From Sulfolobales archaeon (GTDB lineage: Archaea; Thermoproteota; Thermoprotei_A; Sulfolobales; NBVN01): a DNA stretch of 64,000 bases. Shown in pieces: positions 27,148 through 44,166 of the stretch. Each line of letters starts with the position of its first letter. Within the stretch, counting starts at the first letter, position 1. The stretch spans positions 1 through 64,000 of the forward strand of contig JAWBTQ010000002.1 of NCBI GenBank assembly GCA_038841535.1, in the 5' to 3' direction. The notes beneath the pieces are model-generated. The model did not search any database and was not told the origin of the DNA. It saw nothing but the letters and a program-made list of their open reading frames with translations. The translations under genes and the position numbers were made by a program.

Positions 27148-27360
27148 ATGTCCGTAAGGAGAAGGGAAGCAAAAGTCAAGAAGATATCCGGCAAGAAGAA
27201 CGTTCGTGGTAAAACTTACACATACGAGTACTACACTCTTCCACTAAACCTATATATCCCCAAGTCCATGGTCGAAAAGTGGGGAGAAGACTACATAATT
27301 GAGAGAGACGAAGAAAAAGGTATGATTTTGATAAAATCAAAAAAGTCTGAGGCTAGGTAA
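27148..27360 (+). CDS. Small basic hypothetical protein (possible swapped-hairpin/AbrB-like DNA binder)
   Basis: 70 aa, Lys/Arg-rich, with YYTLPLNLYIPKSMVEKWG; own TATA-like element (CTTAATAA ~27111). Confidence 0.7.
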   Translation: MSVRRREAKVKKISGKKNVRGKTYTYEYYTLPLNLYIPKSMVEKWGEDYIIERDEEKGMILIKSKKSEAR

Positions 27361-27364
27361 AGGC

Positions 27365-27697
27365 TTGAAGGAGAGAAAAAAAGAGATACTGTTTATTTTA
27401 CTTCAGTTAGTCCCGATTGGTAAGGTAACAACTTACAGGTCATTGGCGAAGATTATGAAGACTTCCCCCAGAGCCGTGGGGAGGATGCTTAAGCAAAACG
27501 ATAAACCAGTGGTCATTCCATGCCACAGGGTAGTTAGAACTTCTGGAGACTTAGGAGGGTACACTCTAGGCGGTAAAGAAGACCGAGGGTTTAAGTTAAA
27601 GCTGCTGAAGCTGGAAGACGTTGTAATGTCTAGAGATAGAGTAAGCTCTGAGAGCCTTATTCGACTCGACGAGGTGCTTCTCGGGAGCTCTCGATAA
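27365..27697 (+). CDS. ogt: Methylated-DNA--protein-cysteine methyltransferase (MGMT, C-terminal domain only)
   Basis: GKVTTY, PRAVG, IPCHRVV active site and LGGY motifs. Confidence 0.9.
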   Translation: MKERKKEILFILLQLVPIGKVTTYRSLAKIMKTSPRAVGRMLKQNDKPVVIPCHRVVRTSGDLGGYTLGGKEDRGFKLKLLKLEDVVMSRDRVSSESLIRLDEVLLGSSR

Positions 27698-28538
27698 TGT
27701 CTTGATAGCTCCTCCTCAGTACATTAACAATGTTGCTCACTATTTTTTCAGTACTCTGAGTGCTCCGAAGATCTGCCTCAAGCTCCTTCAATATAGATTC
27801 ATCTATATTCATAACCTTTCCGAACCTCTTGATGGATGAGCTAATCACTTCTTCAAGACTCAACAGCTCTCTCTCGCTTATGGATACTTTGAGGGTCCCA
27901 AGAGCATAACTCAAGATCGCGGCTAGGGTTACATCTAAGAGTACTTCAGGGGAAGTACCGGGTAGAACCTGAGATAGAGATAACCTGGCCGAATAGCAGA
28001 GTGATGCGATGACATTCTTAGCGGATCCAAGCACACCCCTGATGTCTCTACGTGAGACTGAATCTAGGAGACGATATAGGTCTTCCTTATCTAGGTTAGC
28101 CCAGAGATCTTCGCTTAGCCTTATAGTCTCTGCTACTGCTTCTGTCGACTCCATAATTTTCCTCCAGTCAATTCCGTACCATGTTTCGTGAAGGGCTGAT
28201 GTCAGTCTTAGTACTGCGTCTATAGACGAGCTGAATGCTTTGAGTACTTGGTTAATATGGTCTATATTGGAGGGGTTCTTCAGTAAAGTAAAGTACACTA
28301 GTACCTTGGAGACTACATCTCTATCTTCCGTAACTTGTGGCTGTATCTCTATAATTCTACCGCTTACGAGCGTAGCCAGCAGCTTGCCGGATAGCTCTTC
28401 GTATGTGAGGTCTGTAATGGAGTTTAGGTCAATTCTATACGTCCTCTTAGTTCTCCGTATATAGACATTTACGTACCGGTCACCGATCTCTACTTCACAG
28501 CCAAAGAGTAATTCACCATCCCTACACAGCACTCTCAT
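27657..28538 (-). CDS. Hypothetical protein, mostly alpha-helical; third gene of an unknown operon
   Basis: Long ORF. The probable ATG at 28538 overlaps the end of the upstream gene; the 28646 start would overlap it by 125 nt. Confidence 0.75.
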   Translation of the reverse strand: MRVLCRDGELLFGCEVEIGDRYVNVYIRRTKRTYRIDLNSITDLTYEELSGKLLATLVSGRIIEIQPQVTEDRDVVSKVLVYFTLLKNPSNIDHINQVLKAFSSSIDAVLRLTSALHETWYGIDWRKIMESTEAVAETIRLSEDLWANLDKEDLYRLLDSVSRRDIRGVLGSAKNVIASLCYSARLSLSQVLPGTSPEVLLDVTLAAILSYALGTLKVSISERELLSLEEVISSSIKRFGKVMNIDESILKELEADLRSTQSTEKIVSNIVNVLRRSYQDIIESSREAPRRVE

Positions 28539-30588
28539 CACCCGGACCGTACAAGAGCGTCCACAGCCAGCGCAAGTTTTCCCTAAGTGGGAAGATATCT
28601 TCAAACTTATAGCCTTGTCTAATTCCCTCCCTAATGTACTCCTCAATCAGGGGTCTTATTTTTTCAAGCAGGTTTAAACTAGCAATGATTACGCCGATCT
28701 CTGATAGAGGCCCCATAGTATTGAATACTGCTTTAAGCACAGTGCTAAGAGTGGGCAGAGACTCGACTAGTGGAGTCTCGGGGTCGTTAATATAGTCTAA
28801 TGCTCTTCTCACAGGTTCAAGAGAACTACTGAGAGCTCTATTAAGTTCCTCGATCTCCAATCTTATTGATGCTATTCTTCTTAAGAGATCCGAGACTCTA
28901 GGTAGAGCACTTTTTTTCGCATCAACAGCCCAACTTAATTTGCTCAGAGGGTCTGAAGCGATTAAAGTGTGTGCGTATGAGAAGAAGTTTTGGTATGTCT
29001 TAAGGAGTTCAATAACGTATGGATTCTTTACCTCATAGGAACCTGACAGCTTACTTAACTTCTCTGCTTCATCAGCTAGCTTACTTAGAGTCTCAATAGT
29101 AGCATCTATCTGCTGTTCGAGTCCCAGGAGAAGTATTAGAGTGTAGTTTTGATACATTTGAATGGCTTTAATTCCTAAGTCAGCACAGCTCTTTAAGGGT
29201 CTAAGCATAGGCCTAAAGCCGAAGAGTTCGTAGTAAGCCTCTGGTAGCATGTTCATGAGGGTTTCTTGTAGGTCGCCACAGTAATGCTTAAGTGTCTCTG
29301 AGATCTTCGGTATCAAGCTGTGAAAAGCCTTCCACTTTTCAGTCCTGGTGTGAGCTGTCTCTATCTCTTCATATATTGTAGCTAAGTCTCTCTTAGGGGC
29401 AACCTGGCTTATACCGTGTGAGACTTCTATGAATGTGCGCAACTCTTCGAAGAGAGATTCAAGCGCTTTATCGAACTCTGCGTTTAGTCTGGTAAGCTTC
29501 TCATACACCCTAATAGTTCTCTGTGGAGAGAGAATAACTGAGGAGAGCATTCTCATGTACTCATTTATAGTTGATTTCGACTCGTTGATCATTTCTCCAG
29601 CGTTTGTAAGTGAGCTTAAGTCACCCTCACGAAAGTGCTTCATAAGTTCCTCGAATACTCCAACTTTATATCCTACGACTTCAACGAGCTCTCTAGACTC
29701 CAGTATGTAGCTATGGGCTAATGTCGTACCCTCTTGAAGGCTTTTAGCTAAGCTAAGAGTTCCAATAAAGACTAAAGTGTAAATCGAGACTATAGCTAGG
29801 TTTAGGGGTTGAGGGTTGAAAGTGTATGTAATGACCAATGACAGGGGAGTGGCTATTATAGCCCTTCTTACGAGCTCTAGGAGAGAGCCTTTCAGCGTTC
29901 CTTTATTGGAGATGGGGAACCTGCTGTCAGCTAGTCTAATGAGGAGTAAACCTAGGAAGTATGCCACTAGGACTACACTTAATCTTAAGACGACTTCGTA
30001 ACCTATAATCTCTTTGCTCATACTTAAAAACTCTCGGGGAACTGCTCTCAAGTCTTGTAGGTTGGTTGCTGAGTACTGGCTAACATAAGTCGTGAGTAGC
30101 AGTAAGATCGAGTAGGATGCTACCGAGATCACAGCAACGGAACCGGAGGTCAGTGTGGATAGACTAGCGAAAAGAGCCATAGATACCAGTAGAGACTTTA
30201 TCCACGCTACTGCCAGCACATAGACTACTAAGTGATAAGAGAGAGTTAGTATATCATCTAGCTTCCGTATTCGGGTTATAGAGAGGTATACGGGAATCAG
30301 TAGAACGAGGAGTAGCGAGAAGATTGCTACATCCGCGTAAGGTAGGACGTAACTTACGCTTTCTGAAGAGTAAACTATGTAGAGATATGTCGCTATGTAC
30401 AGCAGTAATAGAGCTGGAGAAACGCCTGGAAATCTGCCACCCGCGAGTGCTGCGACAACGAAAGAAATGAAGAAGGCAAGCTGAAGTTCTAGATATAGGT
30501 TAGGATATACTAGAAAAGCTATTAAACCAGCAACTGCTGCATAAGCTCCAGCTGCTATTACTCTGTTTACTAGTGTCTCGCGAAGCAC
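28522..30588 (-). CDS. Large membrane protein (N-terminal multi-TM region, C-terminal helical/coiled-coil region)
   Basis: 688-aa ORF; residues ~1-280 hold many hydrophobic segments and the remainder is Leu/Glu-rich and helical. Confidence 0.8.
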   Translation of the reverse strand: MLRETLVNRVIAAGAYAAVAGLIAFLVYPNLYLELQLAFFISFVVAALAGGRFPGVSPALLLLYIATYLYIVYSSESVSYVLPYADVAIFSLLLVLLIPVYLSITRIRKLDDILTLSYHLVVYVLAVAWIKSLLVSMALFASLSTLTSGSVAVISVASYSILLLLTTYVSQYSATNLQDLRAVPREFLSMSKEIIGYEVVLRLSVVLVAYFLGLLLIRLADSRFPISNKGTLKGSLLELVRRAIIATPLSLVITYTFNPQPLNLAIVSIYTLVFIGTLSLAKSLQEGTTLAHSYILESRELVEVVGYKVGVFEELMKHFREGDLSSLTNAGEMINESKSTINEYMRMLSSVILSPQRTIRVYEKLTRLNAEFDKALESLFEELRTFIEVSHGISQVAPKRDLATIYEEIETAHTRTEKWKAFHSLIPKISETLKHYCGDLQETLMNMLPEAYYELFGFRPMLRPLKSCADLGIKAIQMYQNYTLILLLGLEQQIDATIETLSKLADEAEKLSKLSGSYEVKNPYVIELLKTYQNFFSYAHTLIASDPLSKLSWAVDAKKSALPRVSDLLRRIASIRLEIEELNRALSSSLEPVRRALDYINDPETPLVESLPTLSTVLKAVFNTMGPLSEIGVIIASLNLLEKIRPLIEEYIREGIRQGYKFEDIFPLRENLRWLWTLLYGPGDESAV

Positions 30589-30594
30589 GTCCTA

Positions 30595-31578
30595 TTACAC
30601 CCTAATTACATTTAAAAATCTTAGGTTTGTTAAGATTTCAACCGCATCTGCTGTAGCGACTGTCTTACTTATGATATTGATTCCTTCTGCTACGATGTTC
30701 TTCAAACTAAATTCAGCGAGGGCTTTAACGTCGAGTACGTCGTTGTCTATGTAGTTTATCTTTACTTTGTTTTCTGCCAGCCTCTCTAGCTTTCTTGCTT
30801 CTTCGTAGAGGTTTTTCCATACTTCTATACTACCGGAGGCTAGGCTTTCAACTGGAAACCTCAGTAGCCCGGTGGAGATGTAGAAGATTAGGTTGAGTGC
30901 TTGAAAGAGGTCTTTGAATATCGAGGCTGGTTCTAGCCTAAAGCATAGAGGTACGTAAGTACCTATAGCTGGGTGTTCGTGTAGCTCTATTGCTAGACCA
31001 GACAAACACTTCTCGACGTAGTCTATGACTTCCATTCTCGTGGAGTTCTTGATTAGTCTGTCGATAGATAGCGGAATTATGGTGTACTTCCCGTACTGTA
31101 CAGTAGCACTGACTAGGGAAGTTAGGTTTACTTTATCAAAGTCGCTTATGTTTCTGTAATCAAAGTTTATGAATAGATATACGTGAGGCGTTATTCCCAG
31201 ATTTCGCATGAACCTTAATACCTTGTATGCGATTACTAATGACTCGTCATGTAAGTCTGTAACAACAGTTAAAGAAGAAGTTACCTTGGGACTCATGTAC
31301 GAAATCAGTACCTCCGCTAACTTTTCGTAGTCCTCCAGTTCGGTCTGACGCATTTTAATAAGTTGGTTCTCTACCGTTAGAGACCTAGTGTTGACGAGCC
31401 TCCAATTGCCAATTGCTTTAGGGCCGGGACCTGAGCTTAAAACAAATACAGATGGATAAAGATCGAGAGTTTTAGAAAACAAGTGAAGGTACTTTCTAGG
31501 GATTATAGCTATTTTTTCTTGCTCAATTAAGCTAACTTTACTTAAGAGGTCTAGAATAAAGCTTAGCGTCTTGCTCAC
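30595..31578 (-). CDS. Hypothetical protein, possible highly divergent FtsZ/tubulin-like fold lacking the GGGTG motif
   Basis: GGTGG SD then GTG at 31578; the central region aligns by eye with the FtsZ core (see findings). The confidence value refers to the CDS, not the fold. Confidence 0.75.
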   Translation of the reverse strand: MSKTLSFILDLLSKVSLIEQEKIAIIPRKYLHLFSKTLDLYPSVFVLSSGPGPKAIGNWRLVNTRSLTVENQLIKMRQTELEDYEKLAEVLISYMSPKVTSSLTVVTDLHDESLVIAYKVLRFMRNLGITPHVYLFINFDYRNISDFDKVNLTSLVSATVQYGKYTIIPLSIDRLIKNSTRMEVIDYVEKCLSGLAIELHEHPAIGTYVPLCFRLEPASIFKDLFQALNLIFYISTGLLRFPVESLASGSIEVWKNLYEEARKLERLAENKVKINYIDNDVLDVKALAEFSLKNIVAEGINIISKTVATADAVEILTNLRFLNVIRV

Positions 31579-31761
31579 AAGCCCCACCGTATTTTGTGGA
31601 ATATGACAAATAAAAGCGTTATTACAAAGAACAAGGTAGTGCAATAAACAGTGACCCTTACATGTAGAGAACTGAATCACGCATAACTAAAGCTAACTAG
31701 CTTTAACTACCTTGACAAGCTTCTCTCCATGCGGGTCTGTATAACACCGCATCAAATCAGT

Positions 31762-32169
31762 TTAGGCGGTCCGGGTTCTTTTGTAGAAGTACTTAGTTAA
31801 GCAAAGCTCGTTTAGGCTTTTACTTACTTGCGCTCGCCACTGGTTAACCCATGGTTGAGATAGCTGATACGGAGCATGCGAAATTGTTAATGAAGGTCTT
31901 ACACCTTGAAGAGATAGATGTGTTGCCACAGCAGCTACAGCTACAGCTACTTTAGCTTCATCTGTAACAACATGTTTAGGAGCCTCTTCCGTTACCTCTG
32001 GTCTTACTGCCGGAGCCTCGACTCGAGGTGCTTGCGGCTTACTTACTTTACCCATTAAAAACCGCGATGATATCCTTATAAAGAAAACTATCATACCCAG
32101 TATAATGAAGGCAAGCAGGTAGGCATAGACTATAGCTAGGATGTCTAGAGCACCAGACATAGGCCCCAC
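31762..32169 (-). CDS. OadG/MmdD-like subunit of a Na+-pumping decarboxylase (single TM)
   Basis: N-terminal TM, Pro/Ala/Glu linker, AVAVAAVATHL helix and a C-terminal W..W.R segment. Confidence 0.6.
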   Translation of the reverse strand: MGPMSGALDILAIVYAYLLAFIILGMIVFFIRISSRFLMGKVSKPQAPRVEAPAVRPEVTEEAPKHVVTDEAKVAVAVAAVATHLSLQGVRPSLTISHAPYQLSQPWVNQWRAQVSKSLNELCLTKYFYKRTRTA

Positions 32170-39590: not shown

Positions 39591-41474
39591 CTACCGTCTT
39601 CTAGTAACTAAGAATGCGATGGCACCTATGAATACTACCAGTAGTATGGCTACTAGCACTAATGTTTCCGTTGGTATACCTGCTATTTGCGGAGGAGTCC
39701 CTGTTACGGTTAATGTTCCAACTCGAACCTCGGTCTGAGTCATAATTACCGTGGTTCCCCCAACGACTTGCGTAATCTCCCTGACCTGGGTTACAGGTAT
39801 CGTGGTTATGACCGGTACTTGGGTTATGATAGTTACAACTTCAGGTCTCCTAGGTGATAGATTGAGTACGGAAATCTTCGAGGTAGGGCCTTCGGACTCC
39901 ACCCACCCGACGAATCTCTCGGTTCTGTAGGCTACAAGAGCAGTCTTCATGTAGATCGTGAGAGCGGGTATGTCTCTCGCTACTACCTCCTGTATTTTCC
40001 ATATTATCTCACGCCTTCCCTCCGGGCTTAAAGTTCTTCTCTGCAGCTCTAGCAGGATATCGAGCTCCGGGTTCCTGTATCTGAACCAGTTTCTTCCAGC
40101 GTATGTTCCAAGAGGATATGCTTGCGAGCTGTGGAACCTCTCGTATAGGTAGTAATCTAGGTCTGTTGTTATAGACATTCCGATACCCATAAAGCCAATG
40201 TCGAAGTCTCCAACACCCTCTCTCTGATCTACGGTGCCGAGAGCTTGGGCCTCGATGGAGGCATCAATACCTATCCTCTTAAGCCACCCTGCGACAAGCT
40301 CCGCAGACCTTTCGAATTCAGCGAGGCCGGATATCGTGAGAATCTTGAACTTAAGTATTGTACCGTTAGGGGTCTCCCTTATGCCGTCTCCATCCCTATC
40401 TATAAATCCTAGTTTGTCTAGTATTTCTGCTGCCTTAGTAAAGTTCTGCTTCCTGTACTTAACATCTGGGTTGTACCAAGTACCGAAGAGTGGTTGTACC
40501 CACCCATCGGCAGCCGGGTATCCGTACCCAAGCATGACTATCCTAACTATAGCTTCCTTATCTATAGCGTACGCTAAGGCCTCTCTAAACTCTCTAATGG
40601 AGAAGGGGTATCTGTCGTTATTGAAACCTATGAATCTCAGCGAGGCTGTGTACGTTAGCTCCACGATCCTAATGTTCGGGTCTTTTAGGAGAACTGGAAC
40701 TAGCTCTGGAGCTACAGTTGTAGCGGTTATCGCGTCGATGTTACCAGCTTGAAGGTCTAGCATCAGTGCATCAGTACTCTTGTATAGTACTACAACTAAT
40801 CTGTCGACCTTCGGCCTCCCTCTGTAGTAGTTTTCGTTAGCTACAAGCTCTATAGAGACTCCAGGTGTGTACTTCACAAATCTAAATGGGCCACTGCCGA
40901 CGGGGTTCTCCATGTTCTTAAACGTAGTCGGATCTACCTCGGACCAGACGTGTTTGGGAAGGGGTGGGATCAGAGCTCCTATGTAGAATAGTGCCGGTGC
41001 GTAGGGCTCTTTTAGCTTGAACTCTACCGTTCTGTCGTCTACGGCCTTAACGTACTCAATGTACTTTCGAAGACCCCACTTATCTAGCTTATCCGAGTAG
41101 TTCGATGCCACGATTAGGTTGAACGTAAACTCGACGTCTCCCGCTGTAACCGGTTTACCGTCGTGCCAGTAAGCACCAGACCTGAGCTTGAATCTCAACA
41201 GTAGCTTCTCAGAGTCGACAGAGTAGGACTCCGCCAGCCACGGAATATAGGTTCCATTAGCCGATATGTATACCAGGGTATCATAGAGTATTCCCCTGAT
41301 GTAGCCAGCAGCAGCGAATAACCCTATTAGGGGGTTGAAGTTGTCAATTTGGTCAGGCATACCTAACTTAAGGACGACTTCCTGAGCTATGGAGGTGCTC
41401 GTGTAAGGACCGAGTAGCCCCAGCAACATCATTAATACAGTAGCTACTATGAAGGCTCTGTCTAAGTTCTTCAT
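39591..41474 (-). CDS. Peptide ABC transporter substrate-binding protein (family 5) with Thr-rich linker and C-terminal TM anchor
   Basis: PWLAES, WHDGKPVTAGDVEFT, VGSGPF and DRDGDGIRE motifs; GGTG upstream of ATG 41474. Confidence 0.93.
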   Translation of the reverse strand: MKNLDRAFIVATVLMMLLGLLGPYTSTSIAQEVVLKLGMPDQIDNFNPLIGLFAAAGYIRGILYDTLVYISANGTYIPWLAESYSVDSEKLLLRFKLRSGAYWHDGKPVTAGDVEFTFNLIVASNYSDKLDKWGLRKYIEYVKAVDDRTVEFKLKEPYAPALFYIGALIPPLPKHVWSEVDPTTFKNMENPVGSGPFRFVKYTPGVSIELVANENYYRGRPKVDRLVVVLYKSTDALMLDLQAGNIDAITATTVAPELVPVLLKDPNIRIVELTYTASLRFIGFNNDRYPFSIREFREALAYAIDKEAIVRIVMLGYGYPAADGWVQPLFGTWYNPDVKYRKQNFTKAAEILDKLGFIDRDGDGIRETPNGTILKFKILTISGLAEFERSAELVAGWLKRIGIDASIEAQALGTVDQREGVGDFDIGFMGIGMSITTDLDYYLYERFHSSQAYPLGTYAGRNWFRYRNPELDILLELQRRTLSPEGRREIIWKIQEVVARDIPALTIYMKTALVAYRTERFVGWVESEGPTSKISVLNLSPRRPEVVTIITQVPVITTIPVTQVREITQVVGGTTVIMTQTEVRVGTLTVTGTPPQIAGIPTETLVLVAILLVVFIGAIAFLVTRRR

Positions 41475-43356: not shown

Positions 43357-44166
43357 TTAGCCGAAGTTAAATTTCAATGAATATACGTCTTCTCTTCTAA
43401 GGCTCAGCAGTGGCAGGATTCTCCTAGCTTCGTGCACGTAGTCGACGTCTATTTCGTACTCTGCGTACTTCTCGCCTATCCCGAGGTCTAGTAAAACCAC
43501 ACCTAGAGGGTCCACGACCATGCTCCTACCGGTAAAGGTAGGCCCGAACTGGTTAGCAACTACTACGTAGTACACGTTCTCGCTAGCTCTACTGCGGGAC
43601 AGAAACTCGAGGGTTTCCTCTTTGAGGGGTCCGCTGTACCAAGCTGACGGTACGAAGACTACCTCAGCCCCCGAGAGGGCATAGTATCTAAAGACCTCTG
43701 GAAACCTGAGGTCAAAGCATACTGCGACAGCTGCCCTACACGACCTAACTTCGAATACCCTGCTTGGAGCATTCCCAGGAGTTACGTATTCAGATTCTCT
43801 ATAACCTAGAGAGTCGAATAGGTGTAGCTTTCTATACACTGCGATAACCTCTTCTCTAGGTGATAAGACGACGGCTGTATTGTACACTCTAGGGTATTCG
43901 GCTTTCTCAAAAAACGTAACGAGGACGTGCGTAGAGAACTCTTTAGCAAACCTCTTAAACTCTGAGATGTATGGTCCTTCTAAGTTCTCAGATTCTCCGT
44001 ATACCTCCTCTGGAGTGCGGCCACTTAGTGCGAGCATGGAGTACTCTGGGAGAACCACTATGTCGGCTTCAACTTTCTTAATTAACAGAAAAACTTTCTC
44101 TAGGTTAGCCCTCTTACTCGGAGAAGAACCGAACTGAAGAATACCGACCCTCAGGGCTCTACTCAA
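43357..44166 (-). CDS. Carbon-nitrogen hydrolase (nitrilase superfamily, Nit1/deaminated-glutathione amidase-like)
   Basis: LPEY, YRKLHLFD and VCFDLRFPE (Glu-Lys-Cys triad), RASEN and GRSMVVDPLG motifs. Confidence 0.92.
   Translation of the reverse strand: MSRALRVGILQFGSSPSKRANLEKVFLLIKKVEADIVVLPEYSMLALSGRTPEEVYGESENLEGPYISEFKRFAKEFSTHVLVTFFEKAEYPRVYNTAVVLSPREEVIAVYRKLHLFDSLGYRESEYVTPGNAPSRVFEVRSCRAAVAVCFDLRFPEVFRYYALSGAEVVFVPSAWYSGPLKEETLEFLSRSRASENVYYVVVANQFGPTFTGRSMVVDPLGVVLLDLGIGEKYAEYEIDVDYVHEARRILPLLSLRREDVYSLKFNFG

Follow-up and report, generated by a model that had tools for sequence, protein, structure and literature searches.

A three-gene module of one Thermoprotei family encodes a protein with a predicted tubulin/FtsZ fold but without GTP-binding motifs

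We analyzed a stretch of 64,000 nucleotides (nt) from a Sulfolobales archaeon (GenBank assembly GCA_038841535.1, contig JAWBTQ010000002.1, positions 1 to 64,000; hereafter the window) and focused on three co-directional open reading frames (ORFs) of its minus strand, termed here genes A, B, and C. In our best reading, the predicted structure of the gene A product marks it as a very divergent member of the tubulin/FtsZ superfamily, accompanied by two novel partners encoded by B and C. With moderate confidence, we favor the interpretation that A is a nucleotide-independent tubulin-fold subunit of a static, membrane-anchored scaffold made of A, B, and C, and that the three genes represent a vertically inherited housekeeping module. 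The three genes are as follows.

30595..31578, minus strand: gene A, 327 amino acids (aa), predicted tubulin/FtsZ fold without GTP-binding motifs
28522..30588, minus strand: gene B, 688 aa, polytopic membrane protein as judged from hydropathy and an AlphaFold2 (AF2) model
27657..28538, minus strand: gene C, 293 aa, ORF with a conserved start

The longest ORFs of A and C extend over 30595..31680 and 27657..28646, respectively; the starts conserved across the relatives are the GTG at 31578 for A and the ATG at 28538 for C. With these starts, a gap of 6 nt (30589-30594) separates A from B and an overlap of 17 nt (28522-28538) joins B to C, which is the tightly coupled arrangement described in the first-pass annotation of this DNA.

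Predicted fold of the gene A product

The AF2 model of A was built from a 17-sequence alignment and received a predicted local distance difference test score (pLDDT) of 87.9 and a predicted template modeling score (pTM) of 0.86. The pLDDT was at least 85 in 28 of the 33 ten-residue blocks, which are distributed across both domains of the model. A Foldseek search of the PDB with this model yielded no fewer than 500 matches (E <= 1e-3). Among the 48 PDB matches listed, all were tubulin, FtsZ, TubZ, or CetZ (including 6y1v, 1rq7, 7m18, 3zid, 2xka, and 4ei7), with a probability of 1.00, E-values of 2e-6 to 2e-5, 322-436 aligned columns, query template modeling scores (TM-scores) of 0.42-0.54, and sequence identities of 9-14%. 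When the same model was compared with BFVD, ranks 1 to 4 were phage FtsZ/tubulin-like proteins (best E 1.3e-7) and PhuZ was found at rank 15; generic Rossmann-type enzymes appeared only at E >= 3.6e-3 and with shorter alignments. The AF2 model comprises the following elements.

aa 3-14: N-terminal amphipathic helix
aa 19-181: Rossmann-like N-domain
aa 21-27, 43-48, 59-63, 100-108, 132-138, and 165-170: strands of the N-domain
aa 28-34, 78-92, 112-126, 146-160, and 172-181: helices of the N-domain
aa 185-201: long core helix
aa 206-289: alpha/beta C-domain
aa 206-215, 246-254, 273-277, and 282-289: strands of the C-domain
aa 224-236 and 255-268: helices of the C-domain
aa 293-318: two C-terminal helices

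The order of the elements in the model is that of the tubulin/FtsZ plan, and A is thus predicted to possess the two-domain fold by which the superfamily is recognized. The first-pass annotation had proposed a nucleotide-binding fold of the tubulin type for A and suggested structure prediction as the way to check it, and the proposal is in agreement with the AF2, Foldseek, and BFVD results. It had also aligned A with Escherichia coli FtsZ by eye. The peptides that it quoted are present in the translation of A, and the order of the elements in that alignment (S4, the T4 loop, H4, S5, and S6-H6) agrees with the model, while the alignment itself receives no statistical support from the profile comparison given below.

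Loss of the nucleotide-binding motifs in A

In the model, the strand of aa 100-108 is connected to the helix of aa 112-126 by a loop of merely three residues, and the peptide DLHDES falls at the loop where FtsZ has GGGTG(S/T)G, just as supposed from the letters of the sequence at the outset. The codons for this loop are located as follows.

31246..31254, minus strand: codons for aa 109-111 (H-D-E) of A, three-residue loop at the position of FtsZ T4

We examined 26 members of the A family for the motifs. A glycine-rich T1 or T4 loop was found in none of the 26 members; the loops at the T1 position (after the first strand) and the T4 position are short, glycine-poor, and unconserved in all of them. 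In tubulin and FtsZ, a conserved acidic residue of the T7 loop/H8 activates the adjoining subunit for hydrolysis of GTP. No conserved T7 element was detected in any of the 26 members, and the corresponding position after the core helix is occupied by a four-residue loop in the window's genus and by a variable insertion elsewhere. At the level of motifs, the early description of A as 'GTPase-dead' is therefore appropriate. Altogether, A as modeled retains the structural hallmark of the tubulin/FtsZ family yet lacks the catalytic ones.

In the A family, near-invariance is limited to L121 and N151, and C191, C212, and F221 were near-invariant as well in the earlier 17-sequence alignment. Both C191 and C212 are present in 22 of the 26 members and neither is present in the remaining four, so that no member carries a single cysteine (0/26). 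This covariation suggests that the two residues form a disulfide or share a (metal) site. One conserved cysteine pair was found in each of the three proteins (C191/C212 in A, C437/C468 in B, and C5/C14 in C), and the pairs are suggestive of disulfides or shared metal sites in all of them.

Conservation and distribution of the module

The A-B-C order and the same flanking genes were recovered by tblastn in six congeners, and the order is kept in 11 genomes of nine other genera. The sister genus (g3) possesses A' (335 aa), B' (722 aa), and C' (282 aa) in a different neighborhood. In eight further genera, all of the 10 loci comprise an A homologue of 318-364 aa, then a protein of 711-737 aa with multiple hydrophobic helices, and then a protein of 281-315 aa; a contig end falls inside B in one of these loci. 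In nearly all of the 10 loci, adjacent genes overlap or are spaced by a few nt, and the first profile of C matched eight of the nine complete ones. Profile-profile comparison between the window's genus and the other genera gave a probability of 98.6% for A (E 7e-16) and of 98.8% for both B (E 6e-17) and C (E 8e-17). We regard this comparison as the independent check of homology, as the family profiles prepared later include the sequences of the other genera. Synteny in the relatives, the second check named in the first-pass annotation, thus holds across the GTDB family that carries the module.

The ratio of nonsynonymous to synonymous substitution rates (dN/dS), calculated against the closest relative, was 0.079 for A, 0.144 for B, and 0.100 for C, and the two flanking housekeeping genes gave 0.099 and 0.130. 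The three genes are under purifying selection. Because their order is conserved in the six congeners and in the 11 genomes of nine genera and the dN/dS is low, A, B, and C are real genes. They have also been inherited together. The trees of A and B share 13 of 14 splits, those of A and C share 10 of 14, and those of B and C share 11 of 14, and the pairwise identities of the three proteins correlate at 0.97-0.98, a value that partly reflects the shared species history. Median identity between genera is 14-17% for the three proteins. In the B tree, the window's genus is placed on a markedly long branch, and the loop that A bears at the former T7 site is shortest in this genus; the module appears to have undergone accelerated change in this genus, as the sequences suggest.

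The profile of A, searched against 1.84 billion representative proteins, retrieved 11 matches at E <= 1e-3, of which 10 are members of the family. A repeat protein of 678 aa (P0011), matched at E 2.9e-4 over seven short stretches, was dropped from the A family as spurious. Among the 351 genomes of the class, A was found in 36, all of which belong to a single GTDB family (35 of the 51 other members and the window's genome), and none of the 299 genomes of the 17 other families of the class contained it. B was detected at E <= 1e-10 in 39 of the 351 genomes, none outside the GTDB family. Strong matches of B and those of C occurred in the same 39 of the 52 family genomes, and A was found in 36 of the 39. 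As for the three genomes in which A was missing, the match of B begins no more than 43 nt from the contig start (G034 and G266) or is a C-terminal fragment only (G267), and A was thus probably lost to assembly breaks. The module is present in 10 of the 13 genera of the family; the genomes without it are the 10 genomes of three genera and three incomplete congeners (79-82% complete). One genome (G033; 99% complete, 3% contamination) displays two full matches of B and C, on contigs C34 and C80, which may be a duplication or the result of a mixed bin.

Absence of similarity to known families

Searches with A, B, and C against Pfam and NCBIfam returned sub-threshold noise only, those against PADLOC and PHROGs gave no meaningful match, and phmmer found no match among the PDB sequences; the initial impression that the three products carry no recognizable enzyme motif was thus borne out. 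The profile searches with B retrieved only compositional coiled-coil noise, and C has no Pfam or PDB match. In the ESM Atlas, there was no usable match to A, and the scores for C were at most 0.82, in the range of shuffled proteins. The comparison of the A, B, and C families with one another by hhalign gave probabilities of at most 7%, and the three appear to be mutually unrelated as far as their profiles tell. Longer, fused forms of A were not found, which is weak evidence. In NCBI, two A homologues are named 'hypothetical protein [Sulfolobales archaeon]', and a single-protein scan of the viral contigs in IMG/VR found no close relative. Full-text searches of the literature brought up no account of a tubulin-fold family in Thermoprotei that is devoid of GTP motifs, although the supplementary tables of surveys might list such sequences.

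Proteins B and C

B was first described as a multi-transmembrane protein, and its hydropathy profile is consistent with this, showing about 8-10 hydrophobic helices in the first ~285 residues and long helices thereafter. In the AF2 model (pLDDT 77.8, pTM 0.56), B consists entirely of helices and can be divided into two parts.

29740-30588, minus strand: aa 1-283, membrane part of about ten helices (hydropathy and AF2 model)
28525-29739, minus strand: aa 284-688, all-helical domain of roughly 400 aa, presumably cytoplasmic (AF2 model)

The last membrane helix (aa 261-318) extends in the model out of the membrane into the bundle of long helices. The loops at aa 105-111 and 218-232 are positively charged, which makes it likely that both termini of B and the helical domain face the cytoplasm. 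The residues invariant among 18 B sequences are C437, C468, and P667, and the membrane part contains no invariant charged residue that might hint at a transport or catalytic function. The noise-level Foldseek matches listed for the B model are mostly membrane pyrophosphatases. Five of the 48 noise-level matches listed are chains of the gamma-tubulin ring complex (E 0.12-0.8, TM-score 0.10-0.15), which are not significant.

The invariant residues of C are C5, C14, and W125. A PH-like domain is a seven-stranded beta sandwich capped by a C-terminal helix. In the first ~95 aa of C, an alternating pattern suggestive of strands gives way to a helix, and this part may form a PH-like domain; the remainder is apparently helical. 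The prediction of a complex between residues 309-688 of B, C, and A provided neither support nor counter-evidence.

Other tubulins and the division machinery in the family

Neither the canonical tubulin family (Pfam PF00091) nor the FtsZl1 type (PF13809) was detected in any of the 52 family genomes, including the window's own; 23 of the 52 are at least 90% complete, and the positive controls were detected for both profiles. As the 52 genomes contain no canonical or FtsZl1-type tubulin, A has no GTP-competent partner in them. Contig C3 of the window's genome encodes CdvA (43491-43847; E 1e-33) and has a Vps4_C match (41370-41474) at a distance of 2 kilobases. A Cdv/ESCRT division cluster is thus encoded at another place in this genome, and the organism presumably divides by means of the Cdv system. 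The Pfam Snf7 profile gave no match in the window's genome, a search that is uninformative as the control barely detects Sulfolobus CdvB. In a genome of another family of the same order, we noticed a weak PF00091 match (G326:C1:2605507-2606100; E 4e-7) in an open frame of 1060 aa, which may be an SSO1376-type FtsZ-like protein of Makarova & Koonin.

A proposed static scaffold and its alternatives

We propose that A has retained the two-domain fold and has lost the glycine-rich T1 and T4 loops and T7/H8. Owing to these losses, A would be unable to act as a GTP-driven dynamic filament. Instead, A would be produced in a fixed proportion with B and C, and the three proteins would together make up a static scaffold that is anchored in the membrane and lies on its cytoplasmic face. 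B would be both the anchor and the platform, by virtue of the last membrane helix running into the cytoplasmic helical domain, and would thereby tether A to the membrane. A would be a building block or an adaptor that needs no nucleotide, and C, a small two-part protein, would act as the connector within a single A-B-C complex. The module would be a chromosomal, vertically inherited one in a family of Thermoprotei that divides by the Cdv system and has no other protein of the tubulin superfamily. As for its cellular role, the scaffold may organize the envelope or membrane or may be an accessory to division.

Several observations weigh against this proposal. The 26 members of the A family and 14 FtsZ sequences of Thermoproteota were compared by hhalign, and the probability was 0.24%. 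PF00091 (Tubulin), PF13809 (Tubulin_2), and FtsZ_C matched none of the 26 members at E <= 0.05, nor did any other Pfam family, and the search of PDB sequences with the A-family profile found no tubulin among its five matches at E <= 10. The TM-scores of A are only about 0.5 with a root-mean-square deviation of 7-8 A, and its assignment to the fold therefore depends on a single AF2 model from 17 sequences, on which the T1, T4, and T7 loops were located by the order of secondary structures. The pocket of A may also have been rewritten to accommodate a nucleotide or a different ligand. The full-length B model has no significant relative in the PDB (best E 0.046 and TM-scores of at most 0.15 by Foldseek), and the orientation of its helical domain is deduced solely from the positive-inside reading of the loops. 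Finally, the module is missing in 13 of the 52 family genomes, including 3 of the 23 high-quality ones (search with C), and is therefore not essential to the family.

If the pocket of A has been rewritten, A could still be a nucleotide- or ligand-dependent polymer, of which the dynamic filaments are tethered by B and C. Such a polymer would account for the confidently predicted retention of the whole fold, in which both the core helix and the C-terminal helix pair known from tubulin, CetZ, and TubZ are kept, and for the strong purifying selection on A; polymer contacts could be provided by the N-terminal helix, which is conserved, and by the F-K-D-L motif that opens the first helix of the C-domain. 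We consider it rather unlikely, as a functional pocket is expected to be conserved, whereas the T1, T4, and T7 positions vary within the family, T7 even in length, and T7/H8 is reduced to the four-residue loop in the window's genus. It is rather unlikely as well, in our view, that the likeness of A to tubulin is a product of convergence or an artefact of prediction and that the module is a membrane complex of another kind (e.g., a transporter regulator or a complex for envelope biogenesis) with B as its core. This explanation is compatible with the lack of detectable sequence homology to tubulins, the TM-score of about 0.5 with the high deviation, and the shallow alignment. On the other hand, both the PDB and BFVD place only members of the tubulin superfamily at the top with alignments that are nearly full-length, pLDDT is high in the great majority of the blocks of both domains, and the membrane part of B has no invariant charged residue suggestive of transport or catalysis.

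Rapid evolution of the module could be taken as a sign of mobility, namely of a defense system or a relic of TubZ-type partition in a plasmid or virus. The three genes evolve faster than their neighbors (within the genus, A is 35-82% identical and gamma-glutamyltranspeptidase (GGT) is 71-88% identical), identity between genera is low, the flanking genes differ between genera, and TubZ is among the structural matches of A. However, the module is a single copy except in G033, its flanks are the same within the genus, and its trees are congruent with the groupings of genera. Together with the housekeeping neighbors, the lack of PADLOC or PHROGs matches and of a close IMG/VR relative, and the fact that neither a DNA-binding partner nor centromere-like repeats were seen, these data render a mobile origin very improbable. 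ARC3 sets a precedent for an inactive FtsZ domain that regulates canonical FtsZ or tubulin, and A could be imagined to work likewise; with PF00091 and PF13809 absent from all of the 52 genomes, there would be nothing for A to regulate, and we find this explanation hardly credible.

We additionally considered a bolder version of the static scaffold, in which A is the last remnant of the ancestral archaeal FtsZ/tubulin lineage in a crenarchaeal family that divides by Cdv and a self-assembling, nucleotide-free subunit that builds a static membrane skeleton with B and C. We deem this version unlikely; if true, the skeleton of A would be the first cytoskeletal element of the tubulin superfamily that works without any nucleotide. 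By analogy, the helical domain of B may even be a tubulin-docking platform like the gamma-tubulin complex proteins, of which the sole hint is the noise-level matches mentioned above.

Comparison with known systems

The predicted Rossmann-like N-domain, core helix, alpha/beta C-domain, and two C-terminal helices of A are shared with tubulin, FtsZ, CetZ, TubZ, and PhuZ, and near the former T4 and T6 sites of the model, strands and helices succeed one another as they do in these proteins. A differs from them in the lack of GGGTG(S/T)G, the glycine-rich T1, the conserved T7/H8, and similarity at the profile level, and a C-terminal tail peptide is not evident in A. No counterparts of B, a polytopic membrane protein, and C are known to us from the operons of FtsZ, CetZ, and TubZ. 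EzrA is a membrane tether of FtsZ with a long helical cytoplasmic domain. B resembles it in combining a membrane anchor with a long all-helical domain and in being encoded next to a tubulin-fold gene, but has about ten membrane helices in place of one and matches no solved protein. To our knowledge, the Thermoprotei that divide by Cdv/ESCRT are usually described as devoid of tubulin-superfamily proteins.

Further precedents are the very divergent FtsZ-like families FtsZl1 and FtsZl2, for which a role in membrane remodeling with membrane and coiled-coil components was proposed, and the crenarchaeal FtsZ-like protein SSO1376, which has N-terminal transmembrane helices (Makarova & Koonin 2010, PMC2875224). 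In that paper, both FtsZl1 and FtsZl2 are stated to retain the GTP-binding signature, and FtsZl1 is described as having no recognizable C-domain, a coiled coil of its own, and a gene context of vWA, GTPase, and OmpA (PMC2875224). Compared with FtsZl1, A lacks the signature, possesses the C-domain, comprises 327 aa without a coiled coil, and is not matched by PF13809; the helical domain resides on a separate membrane protein, B, and the neighbors are GGT, Ogt, and a pterin-binding protein. The FtsZ-like domain of ARC3 in plant chloroplasts is thought to be non-functional as a GTPase (PMC3494859, PMC12232670). ARC3 and A are thus alike in that an FtsZ-derived domain would be a non-catalytic partner in a membrane-linked system. 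ARC3 acts on canonical FtsZ1/FtsZ2, has MORN repeats, and is eukaryotic (PMC3494859, PMC12232670), whereas the family of A has no canonical FtsZ.

Surveys of the superfamily collect sequences via Pfam Tubulin or Tubulin_2 (PMC9871819), and A is therefore invisible to them. If our interpretation is correct, a conserved tubulin fold without a GTP site or a GTP-competent partner would mean that the fold has been kept for a purely structural role. With a small soluble protein, a helical domain, and an adaptor, A-B-C offers a tractable three-protein system for the transition from a cytoskeletal GTPase to a static scaffold.

Putative upstream signals, transcripts, and neighboring genes

Two putative signals precede A.

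31608-31615, minus strand: TATA-like box TTTTATTT, candidate promoter element that precedes the GTG start of A by 30-37 nt
31582-31588, minus strand: Shine-Dalgarno-like run GGTGGGG upstream of A, read from the sequence

T/A-rich boxes and G-rich runs are found at the same distance before A in four other congeners (L010-L013). A scan for promoters and terminators of the bacterial type, which is inapplicable to archaea, found no excess of sites over shuffled sequences. Contigs of one metatranscriptomic library, 95-99% identical to the window, cover parts of A, B, and C, with DNA carry-over being possible, and one contig piece (28180-28628) spans the B/C junction; the gaps between the contigs (e.g., 30258-31162) carry no meaning. 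These contigs lend weak support to transcription and co-transcription of the three genes. One contig terminates 2 nt into the start codon of A (31576), which is at most a hint from one study.

The module is flanked by genes for GGT, an OadG-like small membrane protein, Ogt, a pterin-binding protein, DUF354, and a CoA transferase, all of which are ordinary housekeeping genes. Secretion was among the roles initially suggested for the module, and no ATPase or secretin-like gene that would favor it was found at the locus. The small membrane protein (31762-32169, minus strand; 135 aa) is encoded just upstream of A. It matches Pfam OAD_gamma (oxaloacetate decarboxylase gamma chain) at the borderline (27.3 bits against a cut-off of 27), scores below the cut-off of NCBIfam oadG_fam, and is syntenic in the six congeners, not in the other genera. 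At the other end of the module, C (minus strand) converges with an Ogt-like gene (27365-27697, plus strand; Pfam DNA_binding_1, E 6e-20), and the 3' ends of the two genes share 41 nt (27657-27697). Next to the Ogt-like gene, we found an ORF of 70 aa (27148-27360, plus strand) that has no Pfam match; its identity is 97% with the closest congener and 75-94% with five others, a level of conservation far above that of its neighbors.

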